A stretch of DNA of 64,000 nucleotides from the NCBI GenBank assembly GCA_964016885.1, contig OZ024742.1, positions 123,256,001-123,320,000 on the forward strand. The letters run 5' to 3'. Source of the stretch: Eledone cirrhosa. Taxonomy: Eukaryota. Every line of letters begins with the position of its first letter. Positions within the stretch are counted from its first letter, which is position 1. Shown in pieces: positions 33,451 through 35,989 of the stretch. The translations under genes were made by a program, and so were the position numbers. Under the pieces are notes generated by a model. The model ran no database searches. It worked only from the letters and a program-made list of their open reading frames with translations, and was not told the DNA's origin.

Positions 33451-33720
33451 TTATATATATATATATATATATATATATATATATATATATATATATATAT
33501 ATATATATATAACTATGTATACATACATACATACATGTATACAGACGTACAGTAGTATGTATATATATATATATACATACATGTACACATCTATATATGT
33601 ACGTATGGATTCATCGAACATTTATTATAATGCTCGGTGTGTTTGTAAACAAACTTTCCGTATTAAGCCGTACAGTGTTTAACAACCATCGTTGCTCATT
33701 TGTTCAACACTGACAAAGCA

Positions 33721-33763
33721 ACGTTGTACTAGTTTCAAGCTTATTAGCTATCGTCAGCAACGT
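33721..33763 (-). ncRNA. Minimal type I hammerhead ribozyme (family A)
   Basis: Minus strand: acgttg-CTGACGA-tagctaataagctt-GAAA-CTAG-TA-caacgt, perfect 6-bp stem I. Confidence 0.85.
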
Positions 33764-34128
33764 ATACCTTCCTGCCAGATGATTGAACGTCTGAAAGTAT
33801 ATACTTACCTTATGCATATTAACGGCTGAGCAGCCTAATTTGTATATCGAGTGAGTTAATTGGCCGGGGTACCGAAAACGATAAACGGAAATAATGAAAC
33901 GAAATTTCATTTCTCACTCTTAGTACGGCTGTTACTTAAATATAAGTATGTATACGTACATACATATATGTATACAAACGTACAGTAGTGTGTATATATA
34001 TATACATACATGCACACATATATAAATGTACGTATGGATTCACCGAACATTTATTATAATGCTCGGTGTGTAATATGCATAAGGAAAGTATATACTTTCA
34101 GACGTTCAATCATCTGGCAGGAAGGTAT

Positions 34129-34171
34129 ACGTTGCTGACGATAGCTAATAAGCTTGAAACTAGTACAGCGT
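34129..34171 (+). ncRNA. Minimal type I hammerhead ribozyme (family A)
   Basis: acgttg-CTGACGA-t-agct-aata-agct-t-GAAA-CTAG-TA-cagcgt: stem I, core, stem II, palindromic loop III, GUA cleavage triplet. Confidence 0.85.
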
Positions 34172-35989
34172 TCCTTTGTCAGTGTTGAACAAATGAGCAA
34201 CGATGGTTGCTAGACACTGTACGGCTTAATACGGGAAGTTTGTTTACAAACACACCGAGCATTATAATAAATGTTCGGTGAATCCATACGTACATATATA
34301 TATGTTGGCATGTATGTATATATATATATATACGTACTACTGTACGTCTGTATACATATCTGTATGTACGTATACATACTTATATTTAAGTAATAGCCGT
34401 ACTAAGAGTGAGAAATGAAATTTCGTTTCATTTTTTCCGTTTATATATATATATACATATATATATATATATATATATATATATATATATATATACATAT
34501 ATATATATATATATATATATATATATATATATATATATATATATATATATATATATATATATATATATATATATATATATATATATATATATATATATAT
34601 ACATTTGAACTTGATCTTACTATAAATCCGTGCTCAGATTGCTTTTATGTACGATGACTGTTCAGGCAACAGAACGATTCATTTTGCCATGCCTAAAGTA
34701 TCAAATACGTATAGTCAGAAGCACCGAGTAGCGATGTAGCGGGCCGGAAGCTTAAAACTAATAAATATAGCACTCTAAATTTATTAAGCATCTTTTCTGA
34801 AGTTCCTATGTCAAACACACACACACACACACACACACACACACACACTCACACACACACACACGCGCGCACACGCACACACGCACACACACACACACAC
34901 ACACACACACACACACACACACACACACACACACACACACACACAAACACGCACACATGCATATATATACATATATATATATATATATATATATATATAT
35001 ATATATATATATATATATATATATATATATATATATATGATATTAATGAAACGTTTGATGAAATTAATGTTCTTTTGTAATACGTTATTACTTTTTATGA
35101 TTACATTTGATTCAAGTAACATGAAACATTTACTACGGTCTCATAACAATTCCGTCTACAAAGTTATTTATTAAATATTTTTTCCGAATACCAACTATAT
35201 GGATATAAATGCTGACAGAAAAAAATCGTATAATTCTATTATCCCCTGTCATGAGAACACTATGAAAGTTTTATTAAGCTGGAATGACACATTCTCCGTT
35301 TATTCTCAATATATTAATGGCATACACTTTCTTCATGTCAAAATAACTATTTGTTTTTGTTTTTAATAATATTTTCGTTCTGTTTTATTTTTCTAAAACA
35401 AACGAAAAAAGAACAAAAAAACAATCGATGGAAAAAGAACACCTGCAATCTTTAAGAAAACTCGCAATCGAAAGAATTGAAATTTCTCATTAATTTTATT
35501 TCAATCAATGTTGTTAATTAAAGCTGCCGATTTTCGGCCATCTTTAGTCACATGCGGTATATACATAGAGGTGTCTAACTTAGGAAGCTGAAAAATCTTT
35601 AAATAATATACATCGTAAAATATATATTTCATTATATTTAAGCGTATACAGACCAGAATCGAGAATCAGTTGGATGTCGTTGTAAAAACCTTATGGGATG
35701 TAATTTCATCGCTTCACATTCTCAGATAAATTCTACAATCCATCACTCAGAGGTTAATACAGTATCAAATATACCCAACTACATATATAGCAAAGTGTAG
35801 AGTAATTGCTACCAGTTATGTGACTACATACTGTATATGGACCTGTAAATCATGATAGAGCCGTAGGTGTGGTGTCGTGACGTACGGCGTGTTGTGGCTA
35901 TTTTAAACCTGGTGCAGCCCATTCCCTCTCTAGATCCGAATACAGCCGATTTCTTCCAGATATGAATGTAGAGAAAGACTCAATCTCAG

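Follow-up and report, generated by a model that had tools for sequence, protein, structure and literature searches.

How does a non-coding repeat come to lie in a (TA)n tract as more than one of its own units, fused head-to-head to an inverted part of a unit and with a hammerhead motif on each strand? This is the question raised by the locus at 33504-34444 of the window, as we call the whole stretch of 64,000 nucleotides that was analysed. An earlier note had answered it with a retrozyme-like element copied by reverse transcription round a circular or multimeric RNA. Our own answer is that an abundant repeat, 433 nt long, non-coding and carrying a hammerhead motif, was quite probably inserted here in a single event, in which a Penelope-like element (PLE) likely wrote it into (TA)n. 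Positions within the unit are given as p, that is, 34070 minus the window coordinate, modulo 433, and the features are the following:

33452 to 33510, no strand: (TA)n target at the left, as seen in the sequence
33504 to 34071, minus strand: left arm in ribozyme sense, 1.3 units (p0 to p559-566), with TTATAT at its outer end in common with the (TA)n flank
33504 to 33642, minus strand: second copy of the direct repeat, the 3' part of the left arm (125/139 identical to 33937-34071)
33721 to 33763, minus strand: type I hammerhead motif, core CUGACGA at 33757-33751, predicted cut after 33727
33881 to 33936, minus strand: internal copy of the tail segment, then the head-to-tail junction back to the hammerhead; long hairpin fold
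33937 to 34071, minus strand: first copy of the direct repeat, the 5'-truncated start of the left arm, including a TA-rich low-complexity stretch
34070 to 34071, no strand: head-to-head junction of the arms, p0 joined to p249
34071 to 34444, plus strand: right arm, an inverted 5'-truncated copy of 0.86 unit (p249 to p622)
34129 to 34171, plus strand: second hammerhead motif, core 34135-34141, predicted cut after 34165
34389 to 34444, plus strand: 'tail' of 56 nt (at most 63 nt allowing for microhomology), at the right outer end and missing at the left
34442 to 34601, no strand: (TA)n target at the right, as seen in the sequence
49784 to 50195, plus strand: second copy of the family, with a plus arm at about 49857-50195 (core 49942) and a short inverted arm at 49784-49862

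The repeat unit has 433 nt and a GC content of 0.35, and it is non-coding: when it is read round, the longest stop-to-stop frame has 69 amino acids in the sense and 48 in the antisense direction, and there is no ORF. The left arm is 560-567 nt long (34071 to 33504/11), and its two copies of the direct repeat stand at an offset of 433. The right arm, with 374 nt, is shorter than one unit; it ends at p622, which equals p189 modulo 433, and it matches the left arm over 33821-33504 (301/318) and again over 34071-33881 (183/195). The two arms share a single base, 34071, at their junction, and both outer ends lie within (TA)n, at p126-133 and p189, in a window that is itself AT- and microsatellite-rich. 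In this respect the DNA would seem to be of a cephalopod-like character, and the best Atlas cluster for a neighbouring protein was commonest in Mollusca, on two records. The first description of the locus is thus sound regarding the excess over one unit in the minus-strand part, its one hammerhead, the lack of coding capacity, the fusion to an inverted partial unit at 34070/34071 and the different unit positions of the outer ends in (TA)n. Missing from it were the second hammerhead, that of the inverted arm (core 34135, plus), and the pattern of PLE insertion, namely the inverted arm, the tail and the (TA)n target.

The second copy ends in (TA)n at the unit position of 33511 (its outer end is 50188). 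Its centre (49784-49870) is a short hairpin-like inversion with a 13-nt piece duplicated at the junction, which is suggestive of fold-back or template switching.

Since palindromic repeats in (TA)n fill the window and TA-rich DNA is prone to rearrangement, the locus might also be a product made at the DNA level, that is, a MITE or foldback element, or the result of unequal crossing-over or of an assembly artefact. This origin is largely refuted and we hold it to be extremely improbable: terminal inverted repeats would not be expected to differ in length and in the unit position of their ends, as the arms do, the inner junction is not the same from copy to copy, and all three arms keep the hammerhead motif. 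Furthermore, the arms differ by 3-10% and therefore they are not duplicated reads.

Regarding the hammerhead itself, the motif at 33721-33763 has a helix I of 6 bp (extendable) with internal loops, a helix II of 4 bp with U.U at its base and AAUA as loop II, and a helix III in which a single A-U pair is capped by the palindromic loop CUAG (ACUAGU). The core CUGA(C/U)GA, the 4-bp helix II, GAAA, helix III and the cut triplet are found in all three long arms. A structural scan, which was designed only after this motif had been seen, gave six hammerhead cores over the 64 kb, where 100 dinucleotide shuffles had 0.02 on average (maximum 1). At gathering level, a search of the window with Rfam returned no hammerhead. 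For 33400-34500 a cutoff of E=10 gave 91 matches, none of them to a hammerhead and all to microRNAs and other small RNAs, nearly all on TA-rich stretches. Over three copies the 24 named pairs are paired in 72/72 cells, with one double change (helices I and II), and covariation over these copies is not significant, as 149/500 shuffles reach the observed level. The changes inside the hammerhead that are listed for reads of the public run X15 (see below) fall on loop II, on the free core position N7 and on one pair of helix I. Closing the one-pair helix III in the monomer costs 5.4 kcal/mol and two ACUAGU strands pair at -4.8 kcal/mol; a dimeric form is therefore predicted, and the hammerhead would be expected to cut well only as a dimer. 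Metazoan type I motifs are likewise described as dimeric (PMC4209133).

Other hammerhead-like strings are present in the window. One in antisense (33793, plus) was dropped as a candidate, for it has a core mismatch and lacks helix I. Strings of the form CUGANGA-spacer-GAAA that fail the strict scan occur at 10389 (+), 32576 (+), 31583 (-) and 46037 (-), and they are possible decayed or minimal hammerheads of other families. A second hammerhead family, with helix III AUGCGCAU and a long helix II, lies at 46254-46571 and 31720-32010, and its copy at 46.3 kb forms a head-to-head palindrome that ends in (TA)n and carries the motif on each arm. At 42921-42967 (minus) we noted a hammerhead-like core with helix III ATATATAT, of low complexity, which may be due to chance.

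To see the family beyond the window, four public runs (X1, X4, X7 and X15) were mapped onto one unit, with the stretch 33942-34070 left out. The unit attracts 64,615 of the 12,467,656 X15 reads (0.52%) and 9,084 of the 17,142,217 X1 contigs. X4 and X7 gave only 9 and 6 contigs, which say little about the range of the family.

Once the ends are placed on the unit, a check that the earlier note had itself proposed, its view of permuted outer ends does not hold. On the left, the outer end coincides with that of the second copy, as both halt in the same TTATAT (p126-133); the right arm runs past this point and stops 56-63 nt further on, at the unit position of 33881, where 56 X1 contigs become loose with a TA-run consensus. 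This third end is the commonest in the X1 list of loose ends, in which six rows are given (all runs together have 404). Rather than being freely permuted, the outer ends fall repeatedly on two positions of the unit, which are separated by 56-63 nt, and only the inner ends vary. The end at p126-133 borders the left-out stretch 33942-34070 and is therefore absent from the run counts. The short left arm of the second copy ends at p241, which is neither of the preferred sites and lies outside (TA)n; taken together, (TA)n is found at three of the four outer ends in the window.

The loose ends of X15 at 33901-33903 (27,450 reads) were considered as a dominant 3' end and dropped, since their position is an AATT site: molecules come to an end at the AATT sites 33837, 33840 and 33906, the opposite side has a mirror loose end at 33906, and reads starting from the only CATG (34009) would have about the loose length observed. 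Ligation chimeras formed in the RAD library, with its presumed enzyme pair, probably account for them.

As for the inner junctions, 10 of the 15 joints listed are strand switches, each of them with a different breakpoint pair (for 6 the orientation was inferred). When they are read against the list of sites, 7 of the 10 lie away from AATT cut sites; the other 3 were set aside as AATT-site artefacts, and for a further one, at 33768, a variant cut site is possible.

Another explanation takes the arms as pieces of the pLTR of a long autonomous PLE, the 433-nt period being then a local duplication or the mark of one internally deleted master. Actually, most PLE copies are 5'-truncated ends and often inverted (PMC8557442, PMC4209133). 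Divergent subfamily variants exist as well: 10,227 X15 reads depart uniformly at 33699 with an agreement of 0.94, which points, together with the linked variants at 33743-33792, to at least one sister subfamily. In a single X7 contig the departure begins at 33843 and extends over 41 nt. However, the tail of the left arm leads straight into the pre-hammerhead region, and this head-to-tail junction is bridged by contigs of X1 (record 8, 33808-33916) and X4 (record 16, 33818-33941). It recurs in X1, X4 and X15, and no listed piece spans one unit. Since the contigs that bridge this junction come from two organisms, we take the 433-nt period to be a trait of the family. Furthermore, the depth of X15 is about 1,500-2,800 per mate direction over 33863-33892, an ORF is absent after the hammerhead, and a uniform departure after the tail is absent among the listed loose ends. 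Derivation from pLTR pieces is, in our judgement, highly unlikely.

Judging by the sequence, the family is best read as a repeat like the animal 'non-LTR retrozymes', non-autonomous and mobilised by PLEs, and the repeat is likely a protein-free passenger of PLEs. Three features speak for this: an inverted 5'-truncated copy, joined head-to-head with a variable junction; two preferred 3' ends, with a tail at one end only; and a bias of insertion towards (TA)n, which includes the X1 consensus at 33881. The hammerhead with its palindromic helix III belongs to the published footprint of PLEs as well. The pattern known from PLEs consists of partial tandems, an inverted 5'-truncated copy, a one-sided tail and a (TA)n bias (PMC8557442), head-to-head being their most frequent arrangement (PMC3846280). 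In the anole PLE the protein cuts and extends both target strands, there are two internal RNA start sites whose spacing equals the tail length, and uncut RNA is the main substrate (PMC11167929). Against the PLE reading stands the microhomology of 3-6 nt to (TA)n at both outer ends, while homology plays no part in the priming by the one PLE that was assayed in vitro. No autonomous partner was found within the window.

The label 'retrozyme-like' is appropriate as regards the 433 nt, the 35% GC, the lack of coding, the type I hammerhead and the recurring junction. The locus falls short, however, of the two consecutive units with complete hammerheads by which an 'active retrozyme' is defined in 2026: with its 1.3 units and a single hammerhead on each strand it is not one. 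Nor is it an autonomous PLE, as an ORF with RT and GIY-YIG endonuclease is absent from the locus. Having neither the two units nor the ORF, it is therefore filed here as a non-autonomous PLE-mobilised hammerhead repeat, retrozyme-like in its working.

An insertion of this kind could have arisen as follows. An RNA spanning more than one unit would be transcribed, and a PLE protein would nick (TA)n on both strands. The RNA would offer two preferred internal sites, about 220 and 279 nt beyond the hammerhead cut site on its 3' side; reverse transcription primed by each nick would start at one of them and leave a tail on one arm only. Both cDNAs would pass the uncut or re-ligated hammerhead, stop variably and join head-to-head. 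We infer here a two-ended priming, from both sides of the (TA)n break; alternatively, the inverted arm may have come about by self-priming on the antisense template, which is what PMC3846280 favours for head-to-head junctions.

What form did the RNA template have? In each of the three arms the sequence continues through the predicted hammerhead cut site, and therefore a linear hammerhead-cut monomer is excluded as the sole template. The template would have been an uncut or a re-ligated RNA, and of these two a tandem transcript left uncut seems to us somewhat more probable than a re-ligated circle. The earlier note had traced the greater-than-unit length to a circular or multimeric RNA; a head-to-tail junction is indeed needed, but an uncut tandem transcript suffices to provide it. 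A rival to our reading that follows this note, here with the same family and a PLE helper, takes as template a unit-length circle that is reverse-transcribed for more than one round, the monomers coming from dimeric hammerhead cleavage of multimers and being ligated afterwards, which would amount to the life cycle of a true non-LTR retrozyme. The idea that a circle leads to more-than-unit copies was published in 2014 (PMC4209133, Discussion). We regard this model as possible though doubtful. It accounts for the three arms that cross the cut site and for a left arm longer than one unit. Furthermore, the three segment copies differ almost only privately (5, 5 and 2 private columns, 1 shared) and 104/131 columns are invariant, as expected had the copies been identical at insertion. 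The unit folds circularly at -124.4 kcal/mol, against -90.4 +/- 5.2 kcal/mol in shuffles (0/100). Circles of 170-400 nt have been shown for coral, mussel and axolotl retrozymes, and circular retrozymes include some with a one-pair helix III or with U.U in helix II (PMC7229834). Nevertheless, the arms, the star-like divergence and the strong fold fit an uncut homogeneous multimer equally well, and the folding signal comes partly from a self-complementary TA-rich stretch, in a fold that is branched (62% paired). With one hammerhead per strand the locus alone cannot release a monomer, and no copy with two full units was seen. In addition, hammerheads of PLE type cut poorly in vitro (PMC4209133), 8/9 Xenopus dimers were uncut (bioRxiv 10.64898/2026.07.22.740005) and the anole PLE did not need cleavage (PMC11167929).

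That the family is a true circular-RNA retrozyme whose copies bear the complete Penelope signature, with two fixed priming sites, a one-sided tail and the head-to-head arrangement, seems to us unlikely. If it were true, the signature would be a direct footprint of a PLE enzyme that, at both ends of the break, starts at internal sites of hammerhead circles and copies them, and several such families would make up much of the apparent 'MITE' content of the genome.

The helper class is represented in the window by a remnant of another PLE family. At 16431-18307 there is a head-to-head palindrome, its arms 889/918 identical over the compared part, which holds the C-terminal endonuclease part of a PLE and about 520 nt of 3' region; it has (TAA)-rich flanks and itself interrupts a dispersed repeat. 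The product of this GIY-YIG remnant has 3,099 matches at E up to 0.001, and it matches the C-terminus of long YRDD-bearing proteins (38% over 136 aa, E 1e-29), which we take to be RT plus GIY-YIG proteins with a CCHH motif, from known motifs and a match to an Atlas cluster. It is from the homologue matches and these motifs that 16431-18307 is presumed to be a PLE. Pfam gave only a sub-threshold GIY-YIG for the remnant (E 0.097) and no family in 9/9 of its homologues, the PDB search with the remnant had 0 matches, and the search for longer homologous proteins found none. By the structural scan there is no hammerhead core in 16431-18307, and the 433-nt unit has no real similarity to its 3' region (best match 11 nt, E 0.21). 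A palindromic helix III-like string, GAAAC-AATT-GTA, was noted near each of its outer ends.

Twelve further palindromic repeats, mostly beside (TA)n, were also recorded in the window (3951-4334, 32824-33117, 33243-33482, 38897-39015, 42400-42598, 45723-45880, 45978-46105, 46641-47004, 47987-48402, 58703-59508, 62519-62748 and 63672-63807). They have a MITE-like look and may be PLE-type inverted insertions of other families. A dispersed SINE-like repeat of 150-190 nt is present in about a dozen copies in the 64 kb, among them 2069-2211, 9029-9201, 14800-14991, 16236-16424, 36816-36989, 38532-38725, 41355-41551 and 57919-58068.

The 433-nt repeat is thus a new family within a published class; the class, its link to PLEs, the circle model and the uncut-RNA model are all already in print. 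In the literature we found no description of this family, repeat databases and the supplementary tables of the 2026 preprint lying outside that scope. The mobilisation of animal retrozymes by PLEs has so far been argued from co-occurrence and from pLTR phylogeny (bioRxiv 10.64898/2026.07.22.740005; PMC7229834). A retrozyme-type unit that carries a PLE insertion signature in very many copies is more direct support for it. Moreover, the family makes the form of the template, circle or uncut multimer, testable, and what is gained is a good test case and not a new kind of element.

It remains to compare the family with the known systems. From viroid-like circular RNAs it differs in that the fold of the unit is branched and not rod-like and in that the strict scan finds the hammerhead in one polarity of the unit only; its 22-nt hammerhead pattern had 0 matches in viral and metagenome contigs. 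The Chlamys PLEs (MRC1) are alike in being protein-free passengers with pLTRs and head-to-tail multicopy insertions, although they are green-algal and mostly without hammerheads (PMC8557442), and their 3' end is similar to that of autonomous partners, whereas the 433-nt unit has no such match in the window. The repeat annotation of Octopus vulgaris reports recently active Penelope families, and has no match for 'ribozyme' (PMC13282606).

The hammerheads of PLE pLTRs and of amphibian satellites have in common with ours a 6-bp helix I, a 4-bp helix II, a one-pair helix III, a palindromic loop and the dimer type (PMC4209133). In that paper dual hammerheads on opposite strands are 100-700 bp apart, and here the pair is separated by 378 bp. 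The G10.1-C11.1 pair, conserved in the motifs described there, is replaced in ours by U.U and, in the second copy, by C.A. Its proportions are closer to the 'canonical' metazoan type I than to the minimal motif with a helix II of 7-8 bp.

With the endonuclease-bearing PLEs the locus shares the partial tandem and the inverted 5'-truncated head-to-head copy (PMC3846280, PMC8557442, PMC11167929), as well as the tail at one end, the (TA)n target and 3' ends downstream of the hammerhead; it differs from them in holding no RT or endonuclease ORF. The tail has 56-63 nt, compared with the 30-40 nt usual for PLEs, and the ends lie about 220/279 nt past the cut site, compared with roughly 90 nt in the anole PLE (by subtraction, from positions in PMC11167929).

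Finally, animal non-LTR retrozymes are hammerhead repeats of 150-450 bp, with circles in three animals and with PLEs proposed as helpers (PMC7229834), and the 2026 preprint derives them from PLE pLTRs (bioRxiv 10.64898/2026.07.22.740005). Inverted arms and tails are not described in the portions of these two texts drawn on here ('inverted' has 0 matches in PMC7229834). Our locus is unlike them in having 1.3 units with one hammerhead per strand. It resembles them, however, in its non-coding unit within the same size range, its low GC, its type I hammerhead, its head-to-tail junction and its great abundance, and they too have been proposed as non-autonomous PLE derivatives (PMC7229834; bioRxiv 10.64898/2026.07.22.740005).
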